From: a virus
Lineage: Duplodnaviria; Caudoviricetes
IMG/VR virus record: IMGVR_UViG_3300027741_000078
Coordinates: 1 to 56,134 of that record
Length of the DNA stretch: 56,134 nt
Reading direction: 5' to 3' (one strand)
This document shows, piece by piece, positions 7,256-23,949 of this stretch. The notes beneath the pieces were generated by a model. The model was not told the DNA's origin. It made no database searches and saw only the letters and a program-made list of their open reading frames with translations. A program made the position numbers and the translations under genes. Each line of letters opens with the position of its first letter. Position 1 is the first letter of the stretch.

Positions 7256-7885
7256 ATGGCAGCGGTAATGACCTACTCGAGCCTGGTTGATGACATCTCT
7301 ACCTATCTAGAGCGCACCGACACGGCCACGATTGAGAAGATCCCGACCTTCATCATGCTGGCGGAGCAGGTGATCGCGGCAGAGTTGCAGTTCTTGGGCA
7401 ACTTGACGGTGGCGACCAGCACGATGACACCCAACGAGCCGACGATCGTAAAGCCCGCTCGCTGGCGCAAGACCGTCTCCATGAACCTGACCAGCAACGG
7501 CGTTCGGGAGCCGATCCTGCTGCGAAAGTACGAGTATCTACGCAACTACTGGCCTGACCCGCTGCAGACGGATACCCCAGTGTTTTACTCGGATTATGAC
7601 TATACGCACTGGTTTGTGGTCCCCACGCCAGACCTCGCCTATAACTACGAGGTTCTGTATTACGAGAGACCGCAGCCGCTTGACATCAATAACCAAACGA
7701 ACTGGTTCACGCAGTACGCTCCGCAGGCGATGTTGTACGGCAGCCTCCTGCAAGCCATGCCATTCCTTAAGAACGACGAGCGCACCCCGCTTTGGCAGGC
7801 ACAGTACGACAAGATTATTGCCACACTCAAGACCGAGGACGTGGCGCGAATTGGTGACCGTCAGACAGTAGTGAGGGATTCATAA
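7256..7885 (+). CDS. Tail adaptor / tail tubular protein A-like
   Basis: MTYSSL...IPTFIxLAE, PTPD..Y, TNW...LYGSL pattern; position in tail module. Confidence 0.7.
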   Translation: MAAVMTYSSLVDDISTYLERTDTATIEKIPTFIMLAEQVIAAELQFLGNLTVATSTMTPNEPTIVKPARWRKTVSMNLTSNGVREPILLRKYEYLRNYWPDPLQTDTPVFYSDYDYTHWFVVPTPDLAYNYEVLYYERPQPLDINNQTNWFTQYAPQAMLYGSLLQAMPFLKNDERTPLWQAQYDKIIATLKTEDVARIGDRQTVVRDS

Positions 7886-9111
7886 TGAGCTTTATTAGCC
7901 CCTTCACCGGCGACGTAATTCAGCCGACCGACGTCTCCTATCGCAGCGTCTCTCTAACGGCCAACACAACGCTTGCGTGGCCTGTTAATGGTAACGCTAC
8001 AGGCAACGTCGTCGCTCGCATCATGGACGTTACGGCGTCTTCTGCGGGCCTTAATCTGACGCTTCCACCGGCTACCCAGGCATCGGTTGGTTCAGACAGC
8101 CTAATCCGTAACGTCGGCAGCAACTCCTTTAACGTCCTAGACAACGCTGGTGGTGCGGTTGCCACGATCGCCGCTGGTCAGGCTCGTTACATCTACATCA
8201 CGACGAACGCTACTGATGCCGGGACGTGGGGCTCGATTGCGTTTGGTGCGGGTGCCTCTAACGCTGACGCGGCTACGCTTGCAGGGTACGGATTAAGGGC
8301 GATTACTACGACGCTCAATACCGCGCACCAGGTCAACACGTTCTCTAATGCGTATACGGCGGTTGCTGCGGACAGGGCGGATACCTTTGTCTGGACGGGC
8401 GGCTCGGATACCCTGACGCTTACCTCTGCCGTTACGCTTGGCAACGACTGGTTTATCTTGGTGCGTAACGGTGGCAGCGGAAATCTTGCCGTCGTACCAA
8501 GCTCGGGTCAGTTGATTGACGGCTCCGCTTCTATTTCTTTGGCTCCCAGTGATTCGTGCATGATTTGCTGCTCTGGGGCCGCTTTTTATACCGTTGGGCT
8601 GGGGAGAAGCACCCAGTTTAACTTTACTCAGTTAACGAAGGCCGTATCTGCGGGGACGTATACCCTGACGGCTACTGAGGCTGCCAACGTCATCCAGAAG
8701 TACACCGGGACGGTCGTGAGTCCGGTTACGGTTGTGCTGCCGCAGACGATTCAGGTTTATTACATTACTAACCAGGCGAGCAGTTCAATCACCTTCACGA
8801 CGGGTGCTGCGGGTGCTGCGACTGTCTCGGTGCCGGGTAGCCAGCAGGTGATCTTGCTCTGTGACTCGGTGAACCTGTTTAACGCCTCCACGATCGCGGT
8901 TGGTGGCTCGTCGGTGTCTCTGGTGAGCGGATCGGTTGGCTCTCCCTCTCTGTCTTTCTTGTCTGAGGCCTCGACCGGGATGTATTACGTCGGGACCGGG
9001 GAGGTTGGCCTGGCGATTCTCGGCGTCAAGCGTTTTGGCCTCACCGCTACCGGACTGACGATTAGTGGAACCGGCACATTCACGGGCGGGGTATCTGGCG
9101 GGGTATTCTGA
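7885..9111 (+). CDS. Virion structural protein (tail-associated)
   Basis: G/T/S-rich beta-type composition; translationally coupled within tail operon. Confidence 0.6.
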   Translation: MSFISPFTGDVIQPTDVSYRSVSLTANTTLAWPVNGNATGNVVARIMDVTASSAGLNLTLPPATQASVGSDSLIRNVGSNSFNVLDNAGGAVATIAAGQARYIYITTNATDAGTWGSIAFGAGASNADAATLAGYGLRAITTTLNTAHQVNTFSNAYTAVAADRADTFVWTGGSDTLTLTSAVTLGNDWFILVRNGGSGNLAVVPSSGQLIDGSASISLAPSDSCMICCSGAAFYTVGLGRSTQFNFTQLTKAVSAGTYTLTATEAANVIQKYTGTVVSPVTVVLPQTIQVYYITNQASSSITFTTGAAGAATVSVPGSQQVILLCDSVNLFNASTIAVGGSSVSLVSGSVGSPSLSFLSEASTGMYYVGTGEVGLAILGVKRFGLTATGLTISGTGTFTGGVSGGVF

Positions 9112-9112
9112 G

Positions 9113-11326
9113 ATGACTAAGAAGGTTTTTTCTCTAGATACTCAGGCAGGTGTACAACGCGACGGTACGCTGTTTGACAAGAACTTCTATAACGACGGGC
9201 GTTGGGTAAGGTTTCAGCGCGGCAGGCCTCGTAAGATCGGCGGCTACCGGATGCTATCTGACCAGCTCACGGGTCCATCTCGAGGGATGTGGACTAACGC
9301 TGCGAATGGTGTCAACCAGATTTTCTCGGGCTACAGCGGCGGCCTGCAGGAGCTCGTGATTGACAACAACGGCAACGGTCAGGGTATCCAGAACTTCACG
9401 CTATCCAACTTCACTGCTAGCAACAATAACCTCTGGCAGTTTGACGGGTTTTATGACGTCGGCGGTAATGGCGTTGGCTCAATCGTTGCTCATCCAGGTC
9501 AGAATCTTGCCGCGATTGATAGTTCCGTCAATACGCCGGTGCTTATTGGAGACATCAACGGCTCTACGATGTCTAAGGTTGGCGTATTCACCAACTCGCT
9601 TACGGGGAATAACACTGTAATCGCCACAATTCCTACGGCGAATCCGTTGATTGGTGTTGGGCAGACGGTAACTGGCACGAATATCCCTCCGAATACGACT
9701 GTTGTTGGCGTCAATACCACGAATATCACCTTCAACAACGTCATTCCATCGGGGACCGTCACCGCCACCTTTGACAATAACGTGGATGTATCTGGTGGCG
9801 TCGTCTCCCTGCACCCTTACCTGTTTGTCTTTGGCAACAACGGATTCCTAAAGAACTGCTCTGCCGGCAACCCTGCGAACTGGGTGGGGCTGGACTCAAA
9901 CGAGGTTAACGTCGCCACCGGGAAGATTGTGGCTGGGTTAGCGGTTCGAGGCGGTAGCAACTCTCCTTCTGGTCTGTTCTGGAGTCTTGACAGCCTTATT
10001 CGGGTCTCATACATCGGCGGGACGGGTACCCCTGCTCAATATTGGCGCTATGAGACGATCTCGGGGCAGACTTCGATTATGTCTAGCCAGTCCGTGATTG
10101 AGTACGACGGGATCTATTTCTGGTGCGGCGTTGACCGGTTCATGCTCTACGGCGGGACGGTGAAGGAGATCCCTAACGACTTTAACCAGAACTATTTCTT
10201 CGACAACCTTAACTACTCACAGCGGCAGAAGGTTTGGGCCTGCAAGGTGCCGAGGTACGGAGAGATTTGGTGGTTCTACCCTCGCGGAACGTCAACCGAG
10301 TGCAACGACGCGATTATCTATAACGTCCGATCCGGGGTATGGTATGACGCTGGGCAGGCTTTAGGGGCAGGCAGGAGCGCCGGCTACTTCTCAATGGTCT
10401 TCCCCTACCCAATCATGGCGCAGTCGACCACGATCCCTAGCACGCAGGTATTTACAAACACCTTCACGACGGTGAGCGGTAGCGTCTGGTTAAATGCAGA
10501 CTTCGCAAGCACTCTGGCAGACCCGCTGCAGGTTATTACGGGCAACAACATTGCTGCCAACACGACGGTGGTTACGGTTGTTGCGAATAGCCTAAAAACG
10601 ATCGGCGCATTAACGAGCGGCTCAGGGTACACACCAGGTACATACAATGCAACTGCATTAACAGGGGTCGGCGGGATAGGCGCGACGGCAGACATAGTGG
10701 TGGATGGAACGGGGGCCGTCACCTCTGTAACGATCGTCAGCAGGGGCTCTGGATACGCTATTGGTGCTGTGTTGTCTGCGAACATACCTGGCGGGGCTGG
10801 ATTCTCTGTGCCGGTTAGTGCTGTTTATGTTCAGAGCATCCAGATGTCAAACGCTGCAACTGGATCCGGCACCCAGACTCTGACGTTTAGCTCGCCATTA
10901 AATCGGATTCGCGTCTATCAGCATGAGTATGGCGTTAATGACGTGACCGGCCAGAACGCGGCGGCGATTGAGTCTTACTTTGAGACAAACGACCTTGGAT
11001 GGGTATCAGGCGGACCTGCAGCGCCGGCTCCACCTCCGGGTCAGGGCGGAGTAGCCGGAGACAACAAATGGCTGCGTCTAGAGCGTGTGGAGCCCGATTT
11101 TGTGCAGACCGGGAACATGAGCCTAGTCATTACGGGTAGGCCTTACGCGCAGTCTGATGATGCTACGTCAGAGCCGTATGTTTTTGGGCCTACGACTGGC
11201 AAGATTGACATGAAGGAGCAGAGGCGGGAGTTGAGGTTGCGTTTCATTAGTAACGTGGTGGACGGCAACTATCAGCTCGGTAAAGTGTTGTTAAGTGGAG
11301 ACTTTGGCGACGTTCGAGGGTACTGA
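9113..11326 (+). CDS. Tail nozzle / stabilisation (tubular B-like) protein with inserted G-rich modules
   Basis: ATG at 9113; WVRF..G.P.KIGG and EIWWFYP...IYN...WY motifs. Confidence 0.65.
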   Translation: MTKKVFSLDTQAGVQRDGTLFDKNFYNDGRWVRFQRGRPRKIGGYRMLSDQLTGPSRGMWTNAANGVNQIFSGYSGGLQELVIDNNGNGQGIQNFTLSNFTASNNNLWQFDGFYDVGGNGVGSIVAHPGQNLAAIDSSVNTPVLIGDINGSTMSKVGVFTNSLTGNNTVIATIPTANPLIGVGQTVTGTNIPPNTTVVGVNTTNITFNNVIPSGTVTATFDNNVDVSGGVVSLHPYLFVFGNNGFLKNCSAGNPANWVGLDSNEVNVATGKIVAGLAVRGGSNSPSGLFWSLDSLIRVSYIGGTGTPAQYWRYETISGQTSIMSSQSVIEYDGIYFWCGVDRFMLYGGTVKEIPNDFNQNYFFDNLNYSQRQKVWACKVPRYGEIWWFYPRGTSTECNDAIIYNVRSGVWYDAGQALGAGRSAGYFSMVFPYPIMAQSTTIPSTQVFTNTFTTVSGSVWLNADFASTLADPLQVITGNNIAANTTVVTVVANSLKTIGALTSGSGYTPGTYNATALTGVGGIGATADIVVDGTGAVTSVTIVSRGSGYAIGAVLSANIPGGAGFSVPVSAVYVQSIQMSNAATGSGTQTLTFSSPLNRIRVYQHEYGVNDVTGQNAAAIESYFETNDLGWVSGGPAAPAPPPGQGGVAGDNKWLRLERVEPDFVQTGNMSLVITGRPYAQSDDATSEPYVFGPTTGKIDMKEQRRELRLRFISNVVDGNYQLGKVLLSGDFGDVRGY

Positions 11327-11565
11327 TGGCCGTTTTATATGACCCGCGCTATCATACTTTCGTGTCTTGGGCCGACCTGATGGTGGAGCAATTCGCCAGT
11401 AATCAGCTTGAGATACCGAACGAGAAGACCGATTGGAAGGCGTGGGGTCAAGGCCTCAAGTCTATCGGGGTCTTCTCTAACGAAGCCGTTCCCGATCCTG
11501 ATCAGTATGGAAACTGGTCGGACTGGGCCTCTGCACTTATCAACGCGATGAATGGAAATGTCTGA
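11326..11565 (+). CDS. Hypothetical tail-module protein
   Basis: Coupled 79-aa Trp-rich ORF (TGATG overlap). Confidence 0.6.
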   Translation: MAVLYDPRYHTFVSWADLMVEQFASNQLEIPNEKTDWKAWGQGLKSIGVFSNEAVPDPDQYGNWSDWASALINAMNGNV

Positions 11566-12502
11566 CACAATTTTTGTTGGTATCTCATCCTACCGTGACC
11601 CGCTCCTAGCCCACACCATCAAAAGCGCCCTAGACAACGCCAAGTACCCTGAGCAGATTAGGTTCGGCGTTGTTGAGCAGGAGATCCCAGAGCGGCGGAT
11701 TGTTCCTGAATCATTTTGTGGCGCCAACATCACCCATATAGCGATTGACCCCAAGGTATCTCGAGGTGCCTGCTGGGCGAGGTCGTTGCAGATGTCCTTG
11801 TTTGACGATGAGGACTGGGTCTTCCAGATTGACTCTCACACCGTCTTTGATTACGGCTGGGACGAGTATTTTGTGGAGATGAGCAAGATACTGATGATGA
11901 CCAACCCGAAGGTCGTTATCTCGGGCTATCCAAGGGGCTTCATATTTAAGAACGGCAGGTCTGAGAAGGTCCGCGATGACGGGAAGGTGATCGTACACAC
12001 CTGCACAGAGGACACGAGCTTTGAGCATGGGCCGGTTCTCAACATTCCGCCAAAGGGTATTGACTCCGAGGTCCCGGTGAAGGGCTTTTATATTGGCGCC
12101 CAGACCATGTTTGCTCCGGGTCGTTTTATCTATGAGGTCCCTTATGACCCCTATCTTTACTTTAATGGCGAGGAGCACTCCTTAGCGGTGCGGGCGTTTA
12201 CGTTTGGGTGGGACATTTACCACTGCCCAGGTATGCCGGTATATCACCTTTACGAGACTAGTGACACGGACAGCTACCGCAAAAAGCACTGGGAAGACAA
12301 AGAGAACGAAGATCGTAAGGTAAAATGGGGGAATATGGACGTCAGATCTAAGACGCGCCTCGCTGAGATGCTTTTATACGGCAAGGACGTTGGCAGGATC
12401 GGCCTTGGTAATGTCAGGACTCTGCAGGAGTTTGCAGAGTTCTCTGGTATTGACTACCCCAATAAGTTCATCCACGAAAAGGCTCGAAAGGGAATTTGGT
12501 GA
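11552..12502 (+). CDS. GT60-like (Pfam 'GlcNAc'; Gnt1/polypeptide GlcNAc-transferase-like) glycosyltransferase
   Basis: IFVGISSYRD, SRGACWAR, FQIDSH, YDPYLYFNGEE...RAFT.G.DIY...YHLY motifs; start may be 11558. Confidence 0.85.
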   Translation: MEMSDTIFVGISSYRDPLLAHTIKSALDNAKYPEQIRFGVVEQEIPERRIVPESFCGANITHIAIDPKVSRGACWARSLQMSLFDDEDWVFQIDSHTVFDYGWDEYFVEMSKILMMTNPKVVISGYPRGFIFKNGRSEKVRDDGKVIVHTCTEDTSFEHGPVLNIPPKGIDSEVPVKGFYIGAQTMFAPGRFIYEVPYDPYLYFNGEEHSLAVRAFTFGWDIYHCPGMPVYHLYETSDTDSYRKKHWEDKENEDRKVKWGNMDVRSKTRLAEMLLYGKDVGRIGLGNVRTLQEFAEFSGIDYPNKFIHEKARKGIW

Positions 12503-12505
12503 TAT

Positions 12506-15500
12506 ATGGCTAATGACCTCACTACGCTAAAAGGAGAACTTTATTTAATAAACAAAGCGTCTAGTAATGGTTACGGCAATCGTGCTATGGGGCCGGAGTC
12601 CCATATCAATAATATAGCTAATATTCTATATAACGATTATGGTGTAAAGTCTCTAAGGGACATTCAGCCTTATTGGGTTCCTGCAACGCCAAGAATTGAC
12701 GGCAGGTACGAAAAGCGCCCCACCGGAACGGGGTACTGGAAGCTTACCCCTGCATGGCCCGGAAGCAAAATAAATACAAAAGAATGGGTTGACACATATA
12801 CATCCGTGTACATCCCCCCGGTTCCGGCCGTCCCTGCACATTGGTCGGACACGCAAGCGGTAAACAAGGCAAACGGCAAGGTAATCCCAATAGGGCAAAT
12901 TGGCTCTAGCGGAGAGGGAAAGGGCTATACAAACTACAAGCTGATGCCGATCAAGCAGGCGGACGGATCAACTGTCTTCGCGCCAGGACAAGAATGGCAT
13001 GACTCTAGTGACTTTAACAAGATCGCGCCGTTTCTATTTGTTGGTTTGGCGCTTACCGGGATTGGCGGGGCTCTCGGTGCAGTGGTTGGTTTAGAGGGGG
13101 CCGCAGCTAGTGCATTTGGAACGGCTGCAATTTCAACAGCAATCTCCGCCGCTGCAGGAAAAATAGGGGACGTCGGTGATGTTCTTGAGTCATTCGCGAA
13201 GGGTTTTGCAGGCAACTATCTAGGCGACCTTGTTGGCAAAGAAATAAGTTCCGTTATTGATTCAACAATCGGGAAAGGGCAGGTATCAGACGTTATTAAA
13301 AACGTCGTCACCGGAGGGGCAAAGAGCGCCGTTCAAGCCGTCGTTGATGGGAAAAATTTAGATCAAATCAAAAACGCCTTTGAAAAAGGAGGTGTTGCGG
13401 CGGCAATTCCTTCAATACTAGGCAAGGTCCCTGGTTACAATGACCTGTCTGCTGGATCGCAAAGCATTATTTCTAGCGCATTAACAGGCAAGTTAAATGG
13501 CAAAACTCCTACCGCCGGGCTAATTCAGTCTGCAATTACCGCGACTGGGGTTGTTGCAGACACCGCCAAGTCGTTAAATCTTGATCCTGCACAAGAAAAG
13601 CTGCTGGTATCGGGGCTAACGAATACTGCTATGGCGCTGGCGACAAATAAGCCGATTGATGAAGCGCTTGCAAAAACCTTAATACAGTCGGGCCAGACAG
13701 CATTTAATGATTTGGGGAAAAGCTACGCTGGAAAGCTAACCGCAGGGTTAACTGATAGCGTTAAAGCGCAAGTAAAGACGCCGCAGGATTTGGTCACGTT
13801 GGCGCAGCAGTCTTCAGACGGGGTAGACCAACTCCTCGAGACAATTAACGCGGCAGACAAACGGCAGAACGCTATTGAGACTCGGCTTGCCGCGATTAAA
13901 TCTGAAATCAATCCGCAGCTTGAATCTTATCAAAAGGCTGACGCCGAAAGAAACAAACAGTTAACAAATTATTACGACATGATCGGCAGCGGATACTCTG
14001 TCGGCGCAATCAATGATCAAATTGACAAGTTAAATTCAGCAACAGAAAAGTTAAATATTGAATCCACCGCTTTGCAAAATAAGTGGTCAAAGTATCAAGA
14101 CGAGACGAAGAGCCTAAATGATGAGTTAAGCCAGCTCAAGGTCTCGATTCCCAAAAATATAGAGTCCTTCAACCAATTCAAACAAAACCTGCAGGCGGCC
14201 GGCACGACGCTAGACGCATTTAATAACGACTTAAAGAGCAAAACCGAGTCTTTAATTGTTAGCAAAGTCGCGCCAGAATTCGACGCAAACGCCTACGCCA
14301 AGCTGCACAACATTAGCCCGTCTGAGGCCTATAGCAACTGGATAGGCACGGGGATGACGGCCCCTATCAATGACGCCGAGGTTAAGGCGATGGCCGCCGC
14401 CGCACCTCAGAGTGTTATTGAGGGGCTTGCCGATGCGGGAGACGTCAAGGAGGGTTTGGTTGACTCCCACCTGGCGTATGCCATTGCAGCAAGCGCCAAA
14501 GACCAACAGGACAAGGCTCAGGAGGCTATCCAGGCCAATATGCAGGGATACGCCAAGGCCGCTTACGAGGCAGCGCAGACCGGCAGCAAGACCTTTAAGT
14601 TTACGGGCGAGGATGGCGTCCAGTACACGCTAAACACGCCGAAAGAGCTTTTGCCGCGTACCTATCAAGATGCGCTGCAGACGGCTATCAACAACGGTGA
14701 TAAGACCTTCAAGTATACCGGCGAGGATGGCAAAGAGTACACGGTCCCGATTGCAAACAACCTGCTGCCCAGAACCTACCAAGACGCGATGCAGGCGGCG
14801 AAGCAGCGCGGGGACAATACCTTTCAGTACCTCGGCGAAGACGGAAAACAATACACGGTTGCGGTTCCGCAGGACGTGCAGAAGACGTCGATCGTAACCA
14901 AGGCTGCTCCTGCAATTCCAACCGTGTTTGGTTCGTGGAATAAGCCCACCCTAGATCAGTACGAGATACCTCCTGGCGTCAAGCTCGCCACCCCGCAGCA
15001 GGTTTACAACGATCGTACCGCGACCCTGATGAAGCTTGAGAACGGAAGCTACGTCTGGATCCAGGTTCAGAGCGATCGCCTTCGAGATCAGAAATACGGC
15101 ATAACGGATCCGGATTGGGTTAAGGCAAACGATCCCACGGCGTACATAGCAACAATTAAGAACATCCCAACGGATCAGTTACCGGCGTCCCTGCAGAAGA
15201 CTCAGCCTGGCTACGTTAAAGCCGCAGAGGACTTAATTGGTAAGGCTAAAAACATCGCGCCTAGCGCCGTCATGGATACGGTCTCCATGTTCCTTAATGG
15301 TGCGGCGGATGCGGCAAACATTTTTGGTGCGGTTTCTTCGGTTATTTCCGGCACCAAAACAGAGAACACTGCACTGGGTCAGCTTGCCAAAAATTTGACT
15401 GGCCTAAGCGATAAGGCCATGAGCGATGACCTCAAGTCTGCCATTGCCGATAATGTGCAGAGGTGGAACGACTCTCGAGGGCTTGGTGGCAGCGTTAGCG

Positions 15501-18500
15501 CAATCGCCCAGAGCATTTGGGAGAACCCGATCGCAACACTTGGGTTCCAGGTTGGATCCGAGGTCGTTAGCGAGCTGCTCACAGGCGGCACGGCGGGAGT
15601 GGGCGCGAAGTTGGCTGGCAAAGCCGCAAGGGGCGCCTACGTTGCTGATGAGTTGGCGGCGAAGGTTGCATCAAGAACCGGGATCGTACTGTCCGAGGCG
15701 CCGGAGATTATTGCCGGTACCGCAGGGGCTTTTGATTCAACTTACAACGATGTATACGCCACCGCAATAAAGAATGGCAAAACAGAGGCGCAGGCGGCCC
15801 AGATGGCTGCGGATGCTGCGTATAAGGTTGCCGGCGCAAGCTTGGTAACGGGGCTGATTGTCAATGGCAAGAACCCTAACGAACTATCCAATCTTATGTT
15901 TGGCGCCAAACCGTCTGCCGCCAAGCAAAACTTTCTAGATGCAACAACGGGGATTTCAAAGGCTTACGCTAATCAGGTTAAGAAGACCGGATTAGAGGAG
16001 GCCAAAGATGAATTTGTTGAGCAGTTAATACCAAATGCGGTTCGAGATATTTACAAGGGCGCCAATTTTGGGCTGTCAGCGATTGATCCTGGAAAGAGTT
16101 TAACTGAGGCCGCTTATGCGGGGATTATCGGAGGGCTTACTGGATCAACAATCGCCGCTGGTGTTGTGCCCGCTCGGAGCATTGATGATGTAAACAGAAA
16201 CATTACGGCACTAACCTCTCCTCAAATGCTGACGGCAATTGAAAAGGTTCAGCAAATAAAAGACAATCCCAGGTCTTATACCTTGGCTGAATTGTCAAAG
16301 CAAGAAGGCGAAATTATTTCTGCCGCTCACAAAGTTGGAATTTATGACCCAGAAGAAGTAGCCCGCATCGTAATCAGCGCATACCCTAGCGTAAACACAA
16401 AGCAATTAGATACCCTGATAGAGGCAGACGCAAAAGCTTCAATCAGGCAATCTGTAATTGACGAAAACCCGGCTGTTAATAATAGCGAACTAGACAGCAT
16501 TACGTCTGAAAATTACAACAGCGTCTCTGCTTATGTTTACGAAAAAAGGTCCGTTTCTGCGGCGGCTTCCTCAATGGACCCGTCGTCGGCTGCCGCCTAT
16601 ATTAAATCGTTTAGGTCTGCAGAGGCTTCAAATTCCAATTCCCTTGCTTCTTACGGAAAGCAATTAGAGGCGTCGTCTCCAGGGGCGTCAAAATCTCTTT
16701 CTTTATCCGCAAACCAAGCTAAAGTATTTTCAATAAGCCAGACCCAGTCATTATCTAAATCAACATCCGTTTCTTTATCGCAATCAAAATACCTCTCTTC
16801 TTCGTACTCAGTCTCTTATTCCAGGTCAGAGTCAATTGTCTTCTCAATACACGACTCTATTGCATCATCAAGCGCATGGAACTCCTCTCATGCCGCTTAT
16901 AACTGGTCAGTGTCTCAATCCACTTCGTCTTCGTTAAGCGCTTCAAGATCAATAAAGGCGTCGCAATCATCTTCGTTAAGCACTTATAAATCAGAGCAAT
17001 TATCGGCGTCGTCATCACTAAGCCTTTACAAAAAAGGATTGGCATCGCAGACGGTATCAAGCTCGCAATCAAGTTCTATAGCGAGCAGCGCCACTTCTCA
17101 GCCAATCAGCTCGTCTTTAAGCGAATTGCGATCTTCAGCTATATCTCAGTCAATATCAAAATCTGAATCTAAAGCTTCTTATCTTTCTAGCTACTCCGCG
17201 TCAACGTCATCTTCTACGTCGTCAAGAGCGGCGGAAATATCTGCCTCTAGGTCTAAATCCATAGAAGAATCTGCCGCTAAAAGCTCATATTTTTTGTCAT
17301 CTTCTTTGTCTGACTCTACTTCTCGAAGCGCTTCAAGATCCAATTTAATTTCGCAGTCAACATCTAAATCAACAATACAGTCGGTATCTAACAGCGCTTA
17401 CCTGTCTTCGTCTTACTTTGCTGCGTCTTCTACGTCAGTATCCAAATCTGAGGCGGCGGCTCAATCAATTTCAATTTCCAAGTCTGAGGCCGCTTCAAAG
17501 GCAAGCGCTTATTATTCTTCTTCTGCAACTTCTGCGTCTGCTGTTAGTGCTTCAAGATCAACTTTTATATCTGAGTCCAAGTCAAAGTCACAATCCGAAT
17601 ACCTTGCAAGAAGCTCCGCTTACTCATCCTCGTTGCTTTCATCCAGTGTTTCTAGATCTGAATATGCATCGCAAGCGCTAGAGAAATCTAAATCAAACTC
17701 GGCTTCTCAAGCTGCATATTTGTCTTCTTCTTATGCTGCGGCGTCATCTTCTTCTTTGTCTAGGTCAAACTCAAACTTAAATTCGTCGTCAATTTCTAAG
17801 TCTGAATCTACTTCAAGGGCGGCTTCTTATTATTCATCTTCTTCCGCGTCTGCCTCTGCCGTTAGCTCCTCAAAGTTAGCTTTTATATCTGAGTCAAAAG
17901 CAAAGTCAGAGTCGGAGTATCTTTCAAGAAGCGCCTCTTATTCTTCCTCATTGGTATCTTTTAACGCCTCTAAGTCAGCATATACATCGCAGTCTTTAGA
18001 GAAGTCAATATCGGACTCTGCTTTCCAAAAATCATATTTACTGTCCTCTTACGGCGCCGCATCTTCTTCTTCTACATCCAGATCAATCGCCGCGTCAACC
18101 TCTGCATCGCAGTCAAAAGTCGAGGCCACCTCCAAGGCTGTATCTTATTACGCTTCTTCATCGGCATCCGCTTCTTCTGATCTGGCATCAAAATCAAAGT
18201 CAATTTCTGAATCAAAGGCATCCAGTTCGGCCCAAGAGGCCATAAAGCTATCCGAAAGAATCGTATCTTATAGTATCTCGCAATCTTTATACTCGTCTTA
18301 TAGACTCTCCGTTTCAAATTCAAAAGCCGGGATAGTTACGCCAGTGAGTCCATCTCAGACCACACCGGCAAGCTCGTCTCCGAATACATCAGGCACAGCT
18401 AACGCCTCAAGCTTATCCGCAAGCGCCAAAATATCGATTAGCAAAAGTATATTAAACTCTACAAACGAAAGCATATTTATTAGCAACAGCCTTTTAGCCT

Positions 18501-19537
18501 TAACAAATGCGAGCATTCTTGCGGCTAGAAACGAAAAAGTATCGACGAGCAAAAGCATTCTGGCGTCGACAAGCAAAAGTATTCTAAACTCTATAAATCA
18601 AAGCGTATTTGTTAGCAATAGCATTCTGGCCTCAACGAGCGCTAGCATATCAACAAGCAAAAGTATCTCAGTCTCAACAAGCGCCAGCATCTCTTTGAGT
18701 ATAAAAACATCTATAAACACCAACATTCAATCAAGCAAACCGCCCGGCTCTTCCGTGGTAACGACGTCTGCAAGCGGAACGACGTCGGCTCCCGTAACGA
18801 CTTCTCCTGCTATCACCTCGTCTGCGGTGGAGTCCTCGACCGAGACAGCATCTTCGCCACCCGTAACATCCTCGCCACCCGTAACCTCTTCGCCACCTAT
18901 AACATCGTCGCCCGCCATAACCTCGCCAAAGGTCACGACACCTCCATCAAGCAGTCGCCCGGCAAGTAGCGGATTTCAATTTAGCACACCCTCAATTGCG
19001 CCTGTCACGGACTCCACGTTCTCGGATTATGTTAGGCCTATAATTGGCGGCGCACCGGTATACAAGGGAATCCTTGATCAGTTTTTCAAGAAAGTTGAAT
19101 CGGACAAACAACCGGAGACTTCTGTGCCCAAACAAGCGTATTACGAGTACGGAGAGTCAACTCCGATTTCTGACATTATTGGCAGCAATGAAGAGGTCGC
19201 TCCAGAAGAAGAGCCTGCTTTTGCGGCGGGCGGATTAACGTCTCCGCTAAAAACCTTCTATAAGTCGGGTAAAATACGCCAGGACTTCCGCAAGGGTGAT
19301 GCCGTCTCAGGGCCTGGTGATGGGCAGTCTGACGACATTCCCGCGATGCTAGCGGATGGCGAGTTTGTTATTCCCGCTGACGTCGTGGCCGCCTTGGGTA
19401 ACGGCTCAACTAAGGCTGGGAGCGATCAGTTGTACAAGATGATGCACGAAATTCGTAACCGTGCCAGGTCTGCCCACCCGAAGAGCCTTCCACCTAAAGC
19501 TCTGTCGCCACTTGATTACCTGAAGCGGAGAAAATAA
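12506..19537 (+). CDS. Giant (2343 aa) putative internal virion/ejection protein with Ser-rich and mucin-like regions
   Basis: N-terminal Gly/Ala hydrophobic stretch, coiled-coil region, 38-aa repeats, about 800-aa Ser-rich tract, C-terminal GPGDGQSDDIPAMLADGEFVIPADVV motif seen in phage tape-measure/internal proteins. Confidence 0.75.
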   Translation: MANDLTTLKGELYLINKASSNGYGNRAMGPESHINNIANILYNDYGVKSLRDIQPYWVPATPRIDGRYEKRPTGTGYWKLTPAWPGSKINTKEWVDTYTSVYIPPVPAVPAHWSDTQAVNKANGKVIPIGQIGSSGEGKGYTNYKLMPIKQADGSTVFAPGQEWHDSSDFNKIAPFLFVGLALTGIGGALGAVVGLEGAAASAFGTAAISTAISAAAGKIGDVGDVLESFAKGFAGNYLGDLVGKEISSVIDSTIGKGQVSDVIKNVVTGGAKSAVQAVVDGKNLDQIKNAFEKGGVAAAIPSILGKVPGYNDLSAGSQSIISSALTGKLNGKTPTAGLIQSAITATGVVADTAKSLNLDPAQEKLLVSGLTNTAMALATNKPIDEALAKTLIQSGQTAFNDLGKSYAGKLTAGLTDSVKAQVKTPQDLVTLAQQSSDGVDQLLETINAADKRQNAIETRLAAIKSEINPQLESYQKADAERNKQLTNYYDMIGSGYSVGAINDQIDKLNSATEKLNIESTALQNKWSKYQDETKSLNDELSQLKVSIPKNIESFNQFKQNLQAAGTTLDAFNNDLKSKTESLIVSKVAPEFDANAYAKLHNISPSEAYSNWIGTGMTAPINDAEVKAMAAAAPQSVIEGLADAGDVKEGLVDSHLAYAIAASAKDQQDKAQEAIQANMQGYAKAAYEAAQTGSKTFKFTGEDGVQYTLNTPKELLPRTYQDALQTAINNGDKTFKYTGEDGKEYTVPIANNLLPRTYQDAMQAAKQRGDNTFQYLGEDGKQYTVAVPQDVQKTSIVTKAAPAIPTVFGSWNKPTLDQYEIPPGVKLATPQQVYNDRTATLMKLENGSYVWIQVQSDRLRDQKYGITDPDWVKANDPTAYIATIKNIPTDQLPASLQKTQPGYVKAAEDLIGKAKNIAPSAVMDTVSMFLNGAADAANIFGAVSSVISGTKTENTALGQLAKNLTGLSDKAMSDDLKSAIADNVQRWNDSRGLGGSVSAIAQSIWENPIATLGFQVGSEVVSELLTGGTAGVGAKLAGKAARGAYVADELAAKVASRTGIVLSEAPEIIAGTAGAFDSTYNDVYATAIKNGKTEAQAAQMAADAAYKVAGASLVTGLIVNGKNPNELSNLMFGAKPSAAKQNFLDATTGISKAYANQVKKTGLEEAKDEFVEQLIPNAVRDIYKGANFGLSAIDPGKSLTEAAYAGIIGGLTGSTIAAGVVPARSIDDVNRNITALTSPQMLTAIEKVQQIKDNPRSYTLAELSKQEGEIISAAHKVGIYDPEEVARIVISAYPSVNTKQLDTLIEADAKASIRQSVIDENPAVNNSELDSITSENYNSVSAYVYEKRSVSAAASSMDPSSAAAYIKSFRSAEASNSNSLASYGKQLEASSPGASKSLSLSANQAKVFSISQTQSLSKSTSVSLSQSKYLSSSYSVSYSRSESIVFSIHDSIASSSAWNSSHAAYNWSVSQSTSSSLSASRSIKASQSSSLSTYKSEQLSASSSLSLYKKGLASQTVSSSQSSSIASSATSQPISSSLSELRSSAISQSISKSESKASYLSSYSASTSSSTSSRAAEISASRSKSIEESAAKSSYFLSSSLSDSTSRSASRSNLISQSTSKSTIQSVSNSAYLSSSYFAASSTSVSKSEAAAQSISISKSEAASKASAYYSSSATSASAVSASRSTFISESKSKSQSEYLARSSAYSSSLLSSSVSRSEYASQALEKSKSNSASQAAYLSSSYAAASSSSLSRSNSNLNSSSISKSESTSRAASYYSSSSASASAVSSSKLAFISESKAKSESEYLSRSASYSSSLVSFNASKSAYTSQSLEKSISDSAFQKSYLLSSYGAASSSSTSRSIAASTSASQSKVEATSKAVSYYASSSASASSDLASKSKSISESKASSSAQEAIKLSERIVSYSISQSLYSSYRLSVSNSKAGIVTPVSPSQTTPASSSPNTSGTANASSLSASAKISISKSILNSTNESIFISNSLLALTNASILAARNEKVSTSKSILASTSKSILNSINQSVFVSNSILASTSASISTSKSISVSTSASISLSIKTSINTNIQSSKPPGSSVVTTSASGTTSAPVTTSPAITSSAVESSTETASSPPVTSSPPVTSSPPITSSPAITSPKVTTPPSSSRPASSGFQFSTPSIAPVTDSTFSDYVRPIIGGAPVYKGILDQFFKKVESDKQPETSVPKQAYYEYGESTPISDIIGSNEEVAPEEEPAFAAGGLTSPLKTFYKSGKIRQDFRKGDAVSGPGDGQSDDIPAMLADGEFVIPADVVAALGNGSTKAGSDQLYKMMHEIRNRARSAHPKSLPPKALSPLDYLKRRK
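14560..14875 (+). repeat. Three 38-aa (114-bp) repeats: G.KTFKxxGEDGxxYT...LLPRTYQDA
   Basis: Visible in translation and DNA (ggcgaggatggc / ggcgaagacgga recurring). Confidence 0.85.
17396..18230 (+). repeat. 318-bp (106-aa) higher-order repeat, about 2.6 copies, within the Ser-rich tract
   Basis: Units start at 17396 (AYLSSSYFAA), 17714 (AYLSSSYAAA) and 18032 (SYLLSSYGAA). Confidence 0.8.
18851..18927 (+). repeat. 18-bp repeats encoding mucin-like SSPPVT units
   Basis: SSPPVTSSPPVTSSPPITSSPAITSP. Confidence 0.85.
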
Positions 19538-20553
19538 TGGGATTTCTGCAGGGCAACGCGCTCCCAAATGTCACGGAGACCCAAACCACCACCGACAAGC
19601 TGCCGGATTGGTATACCAATGTAGCGTCTGGGTTGTCGTCTGTTGGTCAGGATTACCTCAAGAAGACTCCTGATCAATTAACGGCCGCTTACGACCCGAT
19701 GCAGACGCAGGGTTACGGTCAGGTAGCAGGGGCTGCAGGGGCCTATAAACCGGGCCTGGCAAGCGCAACTCAGACGGCTAATGCTGCCGCAGCCGGGATT
19801 ACCCCTGAGCGCCTACAGCAGCTTATGAACCCCTACACGCAGAACGTCGTGCAGGAGCTGGCGCGTCAGAGCGGATTGAATCTACAAAGAAACATCCTCC
19901 CGCAGATCACCGGTCAGTTTGTTGGCTCAGGTGCATTAGGCTCCTCGCGTTATGCAGGCGCGCTTGGGCAGGCGATGACGGATACCGCGGCAAACTTGTC
20001 TGGTGAGCAGGGCAAGCTTTTGTCAAGCGGCTACAGCGACGCCATGAAGAATCTGCTTCAGGAGCAGCAGAATCAGGTTGCCGCAGGTAAGTTGCAAGGC
20101 GATCTGGCGGCGCAAGAGCAGGCGTTGGGATTGACTGGTGCTAAAGCCCTGACCACCGCCGGGGCAGAGCGTCAGAAGTATGAGCAGCAGAAGCTTGAGG
20201 CGCCCCTCACCGCGGCATCTAACGTCGCAGGGCTCTTGAGAGGGTATACGTTGCCAAACGATAAGACTCAGACAACTGTCAAACCTGGACAGCAGGGCCA
20301 GTTTGGCATGAGCGACTTTGAGAAGCTTGGATCAATTGTTTCAGTTCTTGGCGGCACTGACAAAACCAAGTTTCTTGAGGGCCTCAAAAACGCTGGCAAC
20401 AATGTTAAAGGGTACATTACTAGCTTTATTGGCAGCAATCCTCAATATAACTGGACAAATCTTTCGGGCTGGGGAAGTTATGGCACCGGGTCTGACAATC
20501 CAGAGGCGGAATTAGACACGGTTGTTGATCAGTATGCACCCAAAGAACCTTAA
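19537..20553 (+). CDS. Putative DNA ejection/pilot protein
   Basis: Q/A/G-rich; MNPYTQNVV...GALGSSR pattern typical of podovirus DNA-transfer proteins; position. Confidence 0.65.
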   Translation: MGFLQGNALPNVTETQTTTDKLPDWYTNVASGLSSVGQDYLKKTPDQLTAAYDPMQTQGYGQVAGAAGAYKPGLASATQTANAAAAGITPERLQQLMNPYTQNVVQELARQSGLNLQRNILPQITGQFVGSGALGSSRYAGALGQAMTDTAANLSGEQGKLLSSGYSDAMKNLLQEQQNQVAAGKLQGDLAAQEQALGLTGAKALTTAGAERQKYEQQKLEAPLTAASNVAGLLRGYTLPNDKTQTTVKPGQQGQFGMSDFEKLGSIVSVLGGTDKTKFLEGLKNAGNNVKGYITSFIGSNPQYNWTNLSGWGSYGTGSDNPEAELDTVVDQYAPKEP

Positions 20554-20561
20554 GGATCTCT

Positions 20562-22448
20562 ATGGCGACCAAGACTCCTATCATTACCGATGAAGAGCAG
20601 CAGCAGCGGCTAGACGAGGCCTATCAGCGGCTTGTTGACTCTCTTGACCAGCGCAAGAATAGAGTCTTCGACCCGACATGGATGGCCGCCGCTCAGGCTT
20701 TTGCTACGCCTTCAAAGACGGGTAGCGCATTTGAGGCTATTGGTCGGGTCGCTGGAGCAGTCGGTAAAGCTCAAGAGGCGGAGCAGGCGCAGGAGCAGGG
20801 TGTTGCTCAGAAGATGTTTGAGATTGAGCGCCAGCGGATTGAGATGGCGCAGAAGAGGAATCTATACGACGAGGCGGTTAAGGTTGGAAGAGGTGAATCT
20901 GCCCCCGGTGGATTACCGCAAGCCGCACCTCAGCCAGCACCACCCAGTCCGTTAGCGGCTGCGGCTCAGGCGCCTGTAGAGTCTGGCCCGGTTACTCCGC
21001 CGGTGGTAAAAGCCAGCCCCCTTTCAATGGAGCCCGTTTCTGCGAATACTCCTCCCCTACCTCCTTTAGCGCAAGCAGTCGCACCACAACCTCCTGCAGC
21101 GCCACCTCCCGCAGCACCACCTCCTGCAGCACCTCCTCCTGCACAACCTCCTGCTGCGCCGCCGCCCGCTTCCCCTCTTGCCGCTGCCAACGCTGCCGCT
21201 GCAAAATACAACCTTTCTCCAGAGGCGAGAAAACTGTTCTTGATGTCATTCAGGGACAGTGGTGATTACACAACGGCGATGTCAAAAGCCCAAGAATATG
21301 ACAAAAAAGCTCATGAGATGGCGATTGCAGAGCGGAATGCTCTCGTCAACGAAGCCAACTCTGCTCAAAATGCAGTAAGGGTGACGACAGGCGGCAATTT
21401 AATGCAAGTCAGCCCAACTGGAACGGTAACCCCTCTGTATCTTGGCAGCGGTAACAAAACGATTATTAACGGCAAAGAATACTTGGCAAATCCAAGGGAG
21501 ATAAACGATTTAGAGATGGCTCGGCATCGCGGGAATTGGGATGAGGTTAAAAATCTTGAGGCTAAAATTTCAGGGCAAGCGGAGGCTCCTCCATCAACCC
21601 CGCCAGCTACCCCAACCGGGCCGCTTTCTGCTGCAAGCAAGCCACCTAAGCCCCCCACAAAGAGGGAGTCGGTAGAGGAGGCGGCGGCAAGAATCGCAGA
21701 CGAAGAAAGCAAACGGAAAATAAATGAATCGGTGAAGACTGAGCAACTAAAAGAAGAGCAAAAGTTACAAAGAAGTATTGTTGAGTCTAAAGAGGACGCC
21801 TCATCTCAAAAACGCAACGCGGAGAGGTTGATTAAAATCTTTTCCGATAAGGGTATTCAAGAGATTCTGGGCCCGACAGCCAAGCCTGGTGTTAAGGCCG
21901 CCTTCCTTGAGATTGCTAGCAACCCGCTTGATGTTGCCGGTAACAAGGTTGCCATTACCAATCTACAGAAGGCGCTTGTTCAGTCCAAGGCTACTCAAGA
22001 GCAGATTGACAAGCTAAACGTCGCCAACTCAACGCTTCGGTTAGTCGAGCTTTCTACCGCCAAAAGCTTCCTCAAGGGTCAGGGCGCTGTGTCTAACTCT
22101 GAGCGCGAGCTGGTTGCGGAAATTAACGGCTCTGTCTACAAGGATCCGGCCAACGCCCTGCTATACAAAGCTCAACTTGCGTTTGCTCAGGCCGACATGA
22201 AGGATCGCTACATCAAAACCTTCCAGACCTGGAAAGACAAGCACCCTGATGGCACGGTTGAGCAATTTAACCGGACCGATGCCTATATTCAGATTGAAAG
22301 CAGTTACGGTAAGCAGCTTGAGAAAATCGGCGAGACGATTAAGCTAGGCAAGCCCGCGACAAAGACGGAGCCTGAGAAGAAGCCGGAGACGCCAATGTCA
22401 ACTTTCAGAGAGAAAGCCGCCTCTAAGATTCATTCAATACTTCAGTAA
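20562..22448 (+). CDS. Putative ejection protein with Pro/Ala-rich linker
   Basis: Helical, GQGAVSNSER motif, PPAAP repeats at about 21090-21170. Confidence 0.6.
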   Translation: MATKTPIITDEEQQQRLDEAYQRLVDSLDQRKNRVFDPTWMAAAQAFATPSKTGSAFEAIGRVAGAVGKAQEAEQAQEQGVAQKMFEIERQRIEMAQKRNLYDEAVKVGRGESAPGGLPQAAPQPAPPSPLAAAAQAPVESGPVTPPVVKASPLSMEPVSANTPPLPPLAQAVAPQPPAAPPPAAPPPAAPPPAQPPAAPPPASPLAAANAAAAKYNLSPEARKLFLMSFRDSGDYTTAMSKAQEYDKKAHEMAIAERNALVNEANSAQNAVRVTTGGNLMQVSPTGTVTPLYLGSGNKTIINGKEYLANPREINDLEMARHRGNWDEVKNLEAKISGQAEAPPSTPPATPTGPLSAASKPPKPPTKRESVEEAAARIADEESKRKINESVKTEQLKEEQKLQRSIVESKEDASSQKRNAERLIKIFSDKGIQEILGPTAKPGVKAAFLEIASNPLDVAGNKVAITNLQKALVQSKATQEQIDKLNVANSTLRLVELSTAKSFLKGQGAVSNSERELVAEINGSVYKDPANALLYKAQLAFAQADMKDRYIKTFQTWKDKHPDGTVEQFNRTDAYIQIESSYGKQLEKIGETIKLGKPATKTEPEKKPETPMSTFREKAASKIHSILQ

Positions 22449-22458
22449 TGAGGTCGTC

Positions 22459-23949
22459 ATGCCTTTTTCAGCACAAAACCTCAACGAAAATCAGCAAAAG
22501 ATTGCTGCTTTAATTTCCGCCAAGGCTGATGAGTTGGGCGTTGATCGCGATTTTGCTTTAGCGTTGGCGCACGCCGAGAGCAGCCTGAATCAGTTTGATG
22601 AAAAGAACAAGGTGCTTCTTGGCCCTCCTCCTAAAAACAAAAAAGGGGAGAGGGCTATTGGAGTCATGCAGGTTAAACCGTCAACCGCCAAAGATTATGG
22701 TTTTAGCTCTGCAGACCTGCTTGACCCTGAAAAAAATATCACAGCAGGCGTCACCTATCTAAAGAACTTAATTGACCAGAGTGAAGGGGACAAGGCTGTT
22801 GCTGCAGCAAAGTACAACTGGGGCCCAGGCCGAGATTTTTTTAAGACCGGCGAAGGCGAGTTGCCAGAGGAAACGGTCAAGTATTTAAGGTCAATTAAGG
22901 GATTTGGTGGGTTTGGGGACGCAACTAACCCAGAGCGAGCCACACCGGAACAAACCCCGCCGCCAGAGGAGCCGGTAGAAGTCCCCCCTGCTGCAGAGAT
23001 CCCAGTCGCGGAGCCAACTGCAGAAACCCCAAAAAGTCCAGAAGAGATCCAGAAAGAGGAGACGGAGGGGCGTAGGGATGACGCCTTAACCGCAGCAGCA
23101 CTTGGCGGAACCGCGGGTCTTGGCGCTGGTTATGTACGCAAGCAGGCCACTGCAGTTGAGGATCGCATCCTGAGAGAGGAAAAGGCGAGGGCGGCCGCAG
23201 CAAGGCAGATAGCCGCGATGGAAGCCAAGGGTGCCCCTCCCAAGGCGCCTGGCAACCTTCCCGCTCCAACTCCACCTGCGCCAGAGAAGCCTGCGCCGCT
23301 TAAGGGTGCCCAGTTGTGGGTTAAGAAACTTGGAAATAATATCCCCGACGTGATTGCAGCTCAAGCCGAGACAATGGATAAGGTTAGTCCTCGAGGCGGC
23401 CAGACACTGATCAATCAGGATGCTGCTGCGATGGAGAAGATCCGGCAGATGGGTGAGGGCAGGCAGCGTCTGATCGGCGAGGGCATGGGGCAGATGATGG
23501 TTCCGCCGGAGGTTGCTGAGGAGAGGGCTAGGGCCGCCGCTGCCGCCGAGGCTAATACTCAGAGGTTGGCCGCGATTGAGCGTGATACGAATGCAGCTCG
23601 TGAGGCCAGGCTAGCCGCGCAAGAGGCAAATAGTCCTCTTAATCGTGCCCGAGCCGCTATAACTCAAGTCGCCGAGAGCCCGGTTGGAAGGTTTGGTACT
23701 CGAGCTGGGCAGGCAATGTTTAGGTATGCCCCTGTCGTGGGCTATGGTATGGCGGGCGCATCAATGGGCAAGAGCGCCGAGGAGATGAGGCAGGCCTTGG
23801 AGCGCAAGGAGTACATTGACGCCCTGCTAGCCGCCGCTCAGATGGCTACCACGGGCGCATCAATGGTACCGCCACTTGCCCCGTTCGCTGTTCCTGCAGA
23901 CATCGGGCTCGGCGCCTACCGCATGGGCAAAGAATATTTTAGGGATTAA
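22459..23949 (+). CDS. Virion-associated lytic transglycosylase (SLT domain) protein
   Basis: AES, AIGVMQVKPSTA, AAAKYNWGPG, ETVKY motifs. Confidence 0.85.
   Translation: MPFSAQNLNENQQKIAALISAKADELGVDRDFALALAHAESSLNQFDEKNKVLLGPPPKNKKGERAIGVMQVKPSTAKDYGFSSADLLDPEKNITAGVTYLKNLIDQSEGDKAVAAAKYNWGPGRDFFKTGEGELPEETVKYLRSIKGFGGFGDATNPERATPEQTPPPEEPVEVPPAAEIPVAEPTAETPKSPEEIQKEETEGRRDDALTAAALGGTAGLGAGYVRKQATAVEDRILREEKARAAAARQIAAMEAKGAPPKAPGNLPAPTPPAPEKPAPLKGAQLWVKKLGNNIPDVIAAQAETMDKVSPRGGQTLINQDAAAMEKIRQMGEGRQRLIGEGMGQMMVPPEVAEERARAAAAAEANTQRLAAIERDTNAAREARLAAQEANSPLNRARAAITQVAESPVGRFGTRAGQAMFRYAPVVGYGMAGASMGKSAEEMRQALERKEYIDALLAAAQMATTGASMVPPLAPFAVPADIGLGAYRMGKEYFRD

Follow-up and report, generated by a model that had tools for sequence, protein, structure and literature searches.

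The window analysed here is the whole IMG/VR virus record IMGVR_UViG_3300027741_000078 (Duplodnaviria; Caudoviricetes), which comprises 56,134 bp, has a completeness estimate of 100% and stems from an uncultured phage. A megablast of positions 11000–20000 found no near match among 50,697 deposited phage genomes. On the plus strand a glycosyltransferase gene directly precedes the gene of a giant protein with a long serine-dominated tract, and these two genes are considered here as a candidate system for the O-glycosylation of a phage protein. A reading of the DNA made from its letters alone (the sequence-only reading) had drawn attention to this pair, and its description of the locus proved to be accurate. 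The motifs IFVGISSYRD, QIDSH and YFNGEE, which it had quoted for the glycosyltransferase, are all found in the open reading frame 11552–12502 (plus strand, 316 amino acids). The TGA stop codon of this frame (12500–12502) lies 3 nucleotides before the ATG at 12506 of the giant gene, which is a single open frame of 2343 amino acids from 12506 to 19537. The serine-dominated tract of about 800 amino acids ending in SSPPVT repeats is also there, with the composition and the repeats that had been claimed.

The glycosyltransferase matches the Pfam family PF11397 'Glycosyltransferase (GlcNAc)' (GlcNAc, N-acetylglucosamine) over residues 53–301 with an E value of 2.3e-52 and 179 bits at a cut-off of 21, and phrog_24687 'glycosyltransferase' with an E value of 1.6e-44. 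PF11397 is what we take to be the Pfam family of the CAZy GT60 enzyme Gnt1. Homologues numbered 258, and PF11397 is carried by all 120 among the matches listed. In an alignment of 25 sequences aspartate 94 and histidine 96 of the Q-x-D-x-H motif are invariant along with other residues; the two would correspond to the manganese ligands of the GT27 enzymes. An AlphaFold2 model of the enzyme was obtained with a predicted local distance difference test score (pLDDT) of 91.3 and a predicted template modelling score of 0.91. When this model was compared with the PDB by Foldseek, all matches listed to rank 50 were polypeptide N-acetylgalactosamine (GalNAc) transferases (best E 5.8e-11). A search independent of Foldseek over 48,161 chains gave mouse GalNAc-T1 (Z 22.4 over 272 residues) and Toxoplasma TgGalNAc-T3 (Z 21.2 over 262 residues), with the next family, chondroitin polymerase (Z 17.1), 4–5 units below and generic GT-A enzymes at about 15. 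Model, fold searches and alignment together give a GT-A fold with a DxH metal-binding-type motif. By sequence the best match of the enzyme among PDB chains was an unrelated protein (E 0.18), and the 25-sequence profile found no match among them. The GT60-like assignment, for which the sequence-only reading had advised a profile check, was borne out by the PF11397 match and strengthened by the fold search. Characterised GT60 enzymes transfer GlcNAc onto protein hydroxyls, according to PMC6939170. Genes of the families GT2 and GT1 are absent from the complete genome, with controls detected in 14 of 14 genomes, and a multi-sugar glycan was rejected on this ground. The most economical reading would be a protein acceptor which receives a single sugar.

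In the giant protein 305 of the 800 residues from position 1331 to 2130 are serines (38%), and their share amounts to 40–45% in each block of 100 residues between 1401 and 1900. Serine positions show a period-2 autocorrelation which extends beyond 20 residues. All six serine codons are in use (254 TCN and 51 AGY), and the sole nucleotide repeat in the tract is a diverged unit of 318 bp in 1.9 copies; the TSSPPVTSSPPVTSSPPIT repeats after the tract have an 18-bp unit in 4.3 copies (18849–18925). The reading frame of the tract links an N-terminal part and a C-terminal domain, both conserved in relatives. Because of the codon diversity, the single diverged duplication, the alternation of serines and the conserved parts on both sides, the tract is a protein-level feature, neither a nucleotide repeat nor a slippage artefact. 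No comparable serine/threonine tract was found in the other open reading frames of the phage, and the major head protein (44969–45883) has no serine/threonine tail, serine plus threonine not exceeding 37% in any window of 30 amino acids. A single-sequence AlphaFold2 prediction for residues 1401–2000 had a mean pLDDT of 34.6, a value which neither shows disorder nor excludes a fold. For the same 600 residues the best score in the ESM Atlas was 0.84, to be taken at the level of a lead, and a cluster of accessory-Sec adhesins appeared weakly at rank 10 (0.78). Among the giant proteins of four relatives Pfam gave Extensin_1 in L013, just above the cut-off (106.6 bits, cut-off 105), and in L008, below it (64.5 bits), most likely due to composition. 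Two relatives, L008 (9244–10150; residues about 1301–1600) and L015, have a serine tract built of five-residue KASxx units in place of SxSx. A pentapeptide-repeat helix was considered for the KASxx repeats of L008 and found to be unsupported, the Pentapeptide_4 match, in L013, being far below the cut-off (E 0.044).

The N-terminal part of about 1350 amino acids contains a Gly/Ala-rich hydrophobic segment (about residues 176–218), coiled-coil-like stretches and a helical region. Its only Pfam matches are weak ones to coiled-coil families, it is 80% identical in L009, and tblastn of the N-terminal 1365 amino acids against the 50,697 phage records gave no match. The last 195 amino acids are 68–97% identical among four relatives. 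A motif of this C-terminal domain recurs in 32 phage records, both in proteins annotated as tape measure proteins and in other large proteins, from phages of Arthrobacter, Caulobacter, Pelagibacter and cyanobacteria. Two deposited lineages with the same gene order carry a protein of 580–640 amino acids in place of the giant one (MW202545.1 and the Caulobacter phages GB2A, RW, RLK and KcrB). In MW202545.1, which is also locus L025 of our set, this counterpart (16074–19235) has 639 amino acids, is rich in cysteine and contains the C-terminal motif twice, and the next protein, homologous to the 338-amino-acid ejection protein, has a series of CCS/CCC repeats at its end. From the C-terminal motif, the neighbouring ejection genes, the conserved gene order and the lack of a recognised tail tube or sheath gene in PHROG scans of the phage, the giant protein is read as a tape-measure-like internal or ejection protein of what appears to be a phage of the short-tailed type. 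The sequence-only reading had spoken of a virion-module protein; the virion or ejection context stands, and tape-measure-like internal or ejection protein is the better description.

Both genes belong to a run from 7256 to 23949 (Table 1) in which the genes overlap or nearly abut, with ATGA overlaps, one overlap of 14 nucleotides and one gap of 3 nucleotides. No excess of promoter-like or terminator-like sites was seen within it. The run is a single tightly coupled late operon which includes the glycosyltransferase and the giant gene. To call it a tail operon was roughly right as regards the abutting genes; its content is tail or nozzle-like proteins plus ejection-type proteins. The 737-amino-acid protein has an alternative upstream GTG start at 9065, which would extend it to 753 amino acids. 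It shares 50% identity with the MW202545.1 'phage stabilization protein' and 41% with a virion protein of Caulobacter phage GB2A, and its relatives are encoded in at least 596 IMG/VR contigs. Homologues of the 79-amino-acid gene (79–110 amino acids) form one cluster of 68 among the open reading frames found at this place in the relatives; a Pfam search of the protein remained without a match.

Table 1. Coupled late operon of the window and regions of the giant protein (aa, amino acids)
Feature	Position	Strand	Basis
209-aa virion structural protein, opens the operon	7256..7885	+	phrog_2941 E 3.9e-30; present in all relatives
408-aa tail protein	7885..9111	+	no PHROG match; syntenic homologue in MW202545.1 annotated 'tail protein'
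737-aa tail or nozzle-like protein	9113..11326	+	phrog_3287 'virion structural protein' E 3.1e-23
79-aa conserved small protein	11326..11565	+	start overlaps preceding stop (ATGA); end overlaps glycosyltransferase start by 14 nt
Soluble GT-A glycosyltransferase (predicted), PF11397 (GT60-like), QIDSH (DxH) at residues 92–96	11552..12502	+	316 aa
Giant protein, N-terminal part of about 1350 aa	12506..16549	+	translation; relatives
Ser-dominated, Gly-poor low-complexity tract, every second residue Ser	16550..18757	+	composition, autocorrelation
Mucin-like Thr/Ser/Pro repeats (SSPPVT and variants)	18758..18925	+	translation, repeat search
Conserved C-terminal domain of the giant protein (GFQFSTP ... 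GDGQSDDIPAMLADGEFVIPADVVAALGNGSTKAGS ... KRRK)	18950..19537	+	identity among relatives
338-aa ejection-type protein, start overlaps giant-gene stop	19537..20553	+	phrog_4287 'DNA ejection protein' E 1.2e-6; conserved synteny
628-aa protein of the ejection-protein set	20562..22448	+	no PHROG match; syntenic in relatives
496-aa protein, N-terminal lytic transglycosylase domain, closes the operon	22459..23949	+	phrog_2013 'lytic tail protein' E 8.8e-19 and transglycosylase PHROGs

Relatives were collected in two ways. Scans of IMG/VR with single sequences (the glycosyltransferase, the N-terminal half of the giant protein, its C-terminal domain and the 338-amino-acid protein) reached the close clade only, and relatives lacking the glycosyltransferase were reached with a profile of the 737-amino-acid protein which included two distant GenBank relatives. 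The close relatives are 14 IMG/VR contigs, in which the glycosyltransferase is 71–98% identical and always stands one gene before the giant gene; in two of the 14 (L003 and L004) an extra three-gene cassette lies between them. The tract is present wherever the giant gene is complete or reaches it (L002, L004, L005, L008, L013, L015 and L288). More distant IMG/VR relatives numbered 76 loci with a tail protein 49–67% identical, and none of the 54 with at least 2 kb of downstream sequence has the glycosyltransferase. The metagenome relatives comprised 80 loci, and among the 56 with at least 2 kb downstream it was found in one, a member of the clade. The glycosyltransferase profile detected nothing in the whole records of four relatives of this kind (three of them complete) and found the enzyme of the window as a positive control. 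Tract composition was then compared in the homologues carrying the C-terminal domain. Serine is the commonest residue of the tract, with 0–1% glycine, in all six complete proteins from genomes bearing the glycosyltransferase. Among the proteins from genomes without it serine is the commonest residue in 0 of the 27 tracts in 32 IMG/VR proteins and in 0 of the 31 tracts in 38 metagenome proteins, some of which duplicate IMG/VR contigs. These latter tracts are 60–830 amino acids long, in proteins of 400–2420 amino acids, are dominated by threonine, glycine, proline or alanine, and are of the types (GS)n/(GT)n, (GTT)n, (SGY)n, (TPAV)n or Ala- or Pro-rich.

The place between the 79-amino-acid gene and the tape-measure-like gene is a slot of variable content. 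One type of content is a cassette of a protein of about 100 amino acids resembling acyl carrier protein (ACP; DSLD motif, weak PF00550 match with E 0.004), a beta-ketoacyl synthase of about 370 amino acids (PF02801 E 9.5e-16, PF00109 E 3.8e-10) and a gene of about 150 amino acids. It occurs in L004 (10979–12887) and L025 (14252–16072) and also in L135, L140, L167 and L175, and L004 has both this cassette and the glycosyltransferase. The protein downstream of the cassette starts with MSGVV or MGGVV in L004 and L025, the two which were read, and the cassette may acylate the phage ejection protein. In L110 (12461–13638), and also in L112, L113 and L114, the slot is occupied by a PF10118 'predicted metal-dependent hydrolase' (E 8.1e-38). 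After it comes a protein of 156–203 amino acids from the family to which the third ACP-cassette gene also belongs. Several families of 120–200 amino acids without known function fill the slot in other relatives. Such a pattern fits an insertion hotspot and, equally, a place for enzymes acting on the neighbouring protein. That the slot is a dedicated place for enzymes which decorate the ejection protein throughout a widespread group of freshwater phages, one clade having the N-acetylhexosamine (HexNAc) transferase with a Ser-only tract, others the ACP and synthase, for N-terminal lipidation, and others again the hydrolase, is an idea which we regard as rather improbable. If it were true, these phages would tune their DNA-delivery protein by post-translational glycosylation or acylation, and the glycosylated ejection protein would be a counterpart in bacterial viruses of eukaryotic mucin domains, served by an enzyme of the GT60/GT27 type.

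Relatives of the enzyme in PF11397 are encoded in at least 591 IMG/VR contigs, and for a part of these the surroundings were screened over 10 kb on either side for sizeable open reading frames with at least 30% serine in 100 amino acids. Among 74 loci in which the glycosyltransferase is at most 46% identical, large T/P-rich or S/T-rich neighbours occur in L099 and L100 only, with L102 just below the cut-offs. Immediate neighbours were scanned for 64 of 97 distinct ones. DNA polymerase A was found in six, and DUF3310, ribonucleotide reductase, ADP-ribosylglycohydrolase, NAD-dependent epimerase, GT7 domains and terminase two to three times each; the Gp23 capsid protein and others occurred once each. 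The nearest glycosyltransferases outside the clade (44–46% identity) stand after a portal-sized gene of about 800 amino acids or beside a DNA polymerase-like gene, as judged by eye from N-terminal sequences. No paper on PF11397, or on GT60 in phage, was found in our searches of the literature. Some of these loci have features of their own. In L100 (397–12666) a PF11397 enzyme of 417 amino acids stands beside a gene of 484 amino acids, with proteins of 1917, 881 and 326 amino acids having TP-rich and S/T-rich linkers on the opposite strand; the sizes of the genes from −1 to +3 are as in L100 also in L102, which is probably of the same lineage. Glyco_transf_7 domains were present in two of the 64 neighbours, probably including the 484-amino-acid gene of L100. 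Directly beside one of the distant phage PF11397 enzymes is a protein with a match to 2-oxoglutarate-Fe(II) oxygenase (PF13640, E 1.8e-6), an arrangement which recalls the pair of prolyl hydroxylase and Gnt1 in the eukaryotic Skp1 pathway. Longer phage PF11397 enzymes were also seen (P0107, 536 amino acids; L043, L044, L046 and L060, 536–545; L064, 675), that of P0107 being fused to methyltransferase domains (PF13649, PF08242).

The most specific single explanation of the locus is that the glycosyltransferase glycosylates the giant protein of its own phage, which we put forward tentatively as a real possibility falling somewhat short of an even chance. We infer the protein acceptor, the giant protein as this acceptor, the donor sugar and the benefit. 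In its favour are the family match and the fold of the enzyme, the invariant D94 and H96, the tight coupling of the two genes, an acceptor-like tract found in no other protein of the phage, the constant place of the enzyme one gene before the giant gene in 14 contigs (in two of them with the cassette in between), the confinement of Ser-dominated tracts to bearers of the enzyme, and the lack of thymidylate-synthase-type, GT2 and GT1 genes. The 316-amino-acid enzyme would be a polypeptide O-HexNAc transferase of PF11397/GT60, soluble and metal-dependent (DxH), with a GT-A fold. It would be a late product of the translationally coupled operon which also encodes the tape-measure-like protein of 2343 amino acids, and would act in the host cytoplasm before packaging on the uridine diphosphate (UDP)-HexNAc of the host, most likely UDP-GlcNAc. 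Single sugars would be added to serines and threonines of the Gly-free SxSx tract of about 800 amino acids and of the SSPPVT repeats, and a flexible spacer would thereby become a stiffer, hydrophilic and protease-resistant glycopeptide rod. The sequence-only reading had derived the acceptor from adjacency. This is still so, and family and fold now point to a protein acceptor in addition, but the distant loci have no Ser-rich neighbour.

A number of observations weigh against this explanation. The bearers of the glycosyltransferase are one clade, with a tail protein 75–98% identical within it and at most 67% identical to the rest, and the association of enzyme and Ser tract therefore counts as a single evolutionary event; of the proposal that the two are gained and lost together, the distribution stands (six of six as against none of 27 and none of 31), but as one event only. 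Equally long hydroxyl-rich tracts occur in relatives without the enzyme, three of them complete genomes without a PF11397 gene, and the tract therefore does not need the glycosyltransferase. Tract composition is also kept in sub-clades of similar depth which lack the enzyme (L122–L126, L110/L114), and the persistence of serine across the clade is therefore no sign of selection. The Ser tract could accordingly be a compositional variant of a fast-evolving flexible spacer which needs no modification and to which the glycosyltransferase is irrelevant, as the tracts dominated by T, G, P or A in the homologues lacking the enzyme (27 of 32 in IMG/VR, 31 of 38 in the metagenomes) would suggest. We consider this account unlikely. 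It leaves unexplained why serine dominance with 0–1% glycine is confined to the bearers of the enzyme (6/6 versus 0/58), and it is compatible with the view that the glycosyltransferase is an accessory gene rather than separate from it. On that latter view the enzyme is a 'moron' gene in a variable slot, its acceptor lies elsewhere (an envelope glycan of the host or the lipid-linked precursor of such a glycan, a protein of the host or a different protein of the phage), and it stands next to the Ser tract only by the chance of where it was inserted. That the slot holds unrelated genes in relatives speaks for it and against modification of the giant protein. So does the wider family, as PF11397 enzymes stand among genes for replication, nucleotide metabolism, the head or glycan synthesis and lack Ser-rich neighbours there: none of the 74 distant loci has a sizeable open reading frame with at least 30% serine within 10 kb, and a second scan of 46 further loci found a Ser-rich one only in L288, a member of the clade. 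The PF11397 family is without a general link to Ser-rich proteins. The accessory-gene account has about the same chance of being correct as glycosylation of the giant protein, somewhat less than even. Against it, the characterised activities of the family and of the nearest structural neighbours are all on polypeptides, the enzyme is predicted to be soluble and to be expressed with the virion genes, not early, and there is no other sugar-pathway gene with which to build a glycan. Moreover, the enzyme is intact and in place over 71–98% divergence, beside the most acceptor-like protein of the genome. An objection of our own to glycosylation of the giant protein is that, should the protein be ejected, a heavily glycosylated chain would still need to get through the tail channel.

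DNA modification is the classical role of phage glycosyltransferases, according to PMC12619734, and some distant PF11397 genes adjoin DNA polymerase genes, so that glycosylation of the phage DNA in the style of the T-even glucosyltransferases had to be weighed as well. It is very improbable, because a gene of the thymidylate-synthase/hydroxymethylase family is absent from the complete genome (control detected in 10 of 14 genomes). The glycosyltransferase gene is also placed in the late structural operon, and the fold of its product is GT-A, nearest to GT27, whereas the T4 DNA glucosyltransferases have a GT-B fold.

Three known systems invite comparison with the phage pair. The GT60 polypeptide alpha-GlcNAc-transferases include the Gnt1 of Dictyostelium and Toxoplasma, which acts on a hydroxyproline of Skp1, and the Trypanosoma cruzi UDP-GlcNAc:polypeptide transferase, which acts on mucin threonines (PMC6939170). 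The phage enzyme resembles them as a PF11397 protein and a soluble GT-A enzyme with DxH, by prediction, and a mucin-type T/S/P repeat adjoins it; unlike them it is phage-encoded, has no prolyl hydroxylase partner that was seen, and has a candidate acceptor made up mostly of serine in SxSx. The GT27 polypeptide GalNAc-transferases of animals and apicomplexans have the nearest solved folds to the model, but the phage enzyme is only 13–17% identical to them and lacks a ricin-type lectin domain and a membrane anchor. Gram-positive bacteria have serine-rich repeat glycoproteins (GspB, Fap1 and the serine-rich repeat proteins), which come with GtfA/GtfB (PMC7948813, PMC5207161 and PMC6973325). What the phage shares with them is a long alternating-Ser tract beside a glycosyltransferase gene and an intracellular O-GlcNAc-type modification, here a proposed one. 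The comparison, which the sequence-only reading had already drawn, holds for the long Ser-X dipeptide repeat region of the giant protein, with serine at every second residue, but not for the rest of that system. A GT4-type GtfA/GtfB gene (PF00534, Glycos_transf_1) is absent from the complete genome (control detected in 14 of 14 genomes), a direct reading of the giant protein (MANDLTTLKG ... KRRK) shows neither an LPXTG anchor nor an accessory-Sec signal, and no SecA2/SecY2-like gene turned up in the PHROG scans. Those glycoproteins are moreover cell-surface adhesins, whereas the giant protein appears to be an ejection or tape-measure-like protein of a phage. Glycosylation of mycobacteriophage virions has reportedly been described by Freeman et al. 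in 2023 in Cell Host Microbe. As it is cited in PMC12619734, this system is similar in that a phage-encoded glycosyltransferase is proposed to modify a virion protein of its own phage. It differs in that the glycans are on the C-termini of capsid and tail-tube subunits at the particle surface and the glycosyltransferase is of a different family; in the present phage the capsid protein lacks an S/T tail, and the acceptor proposed is internal and probably ejected. If glycosylation of the giant protein is true, the phage system would work like the serine-rich repeat adhesins and the mycobacteriophage glycosylation, yet would be a member of neither, because it has no GT4 priming enzyme, no LPXTG or accessory-Sec signal and no capsid S/T tail.

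To our knowledge sugars on phage particles have been documented for a few phages only, and there on the outer surfaces of capsid and tail. If the giant protein is modified by the enzyme, an internal or ejected phage protein would for the first time be seen to carry sugars, and PF11397/GT60 would gain a first function in viruses. Eukaryotic enzymes of the mucin and Skp1 types would be connected with a virus of prokaryotes, and enzyme and repeat tract would make a tractable two-gene system for defined O-HexNAc polypeptides. If the giant protein is not modified, the Ser tract would be a further variant of a spacer that evolves fast, and the glycosyltransferase of a very common phage family would act on another target.

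The 56,134-bp record contains no tRNA genes. Two probably homing-type insertions were noted, an HNH endonuclease gene between the endolysin and holin genes (6291–6809) and an endonuclease VII/HNH gene directly after the major head protein gene (45943–46611). Shortly before the terminase genes comes a gene (34702–35532) resembling that of phosphoadenosine-phosphosulfate reductase (phrog_424, E 1.9e-47).

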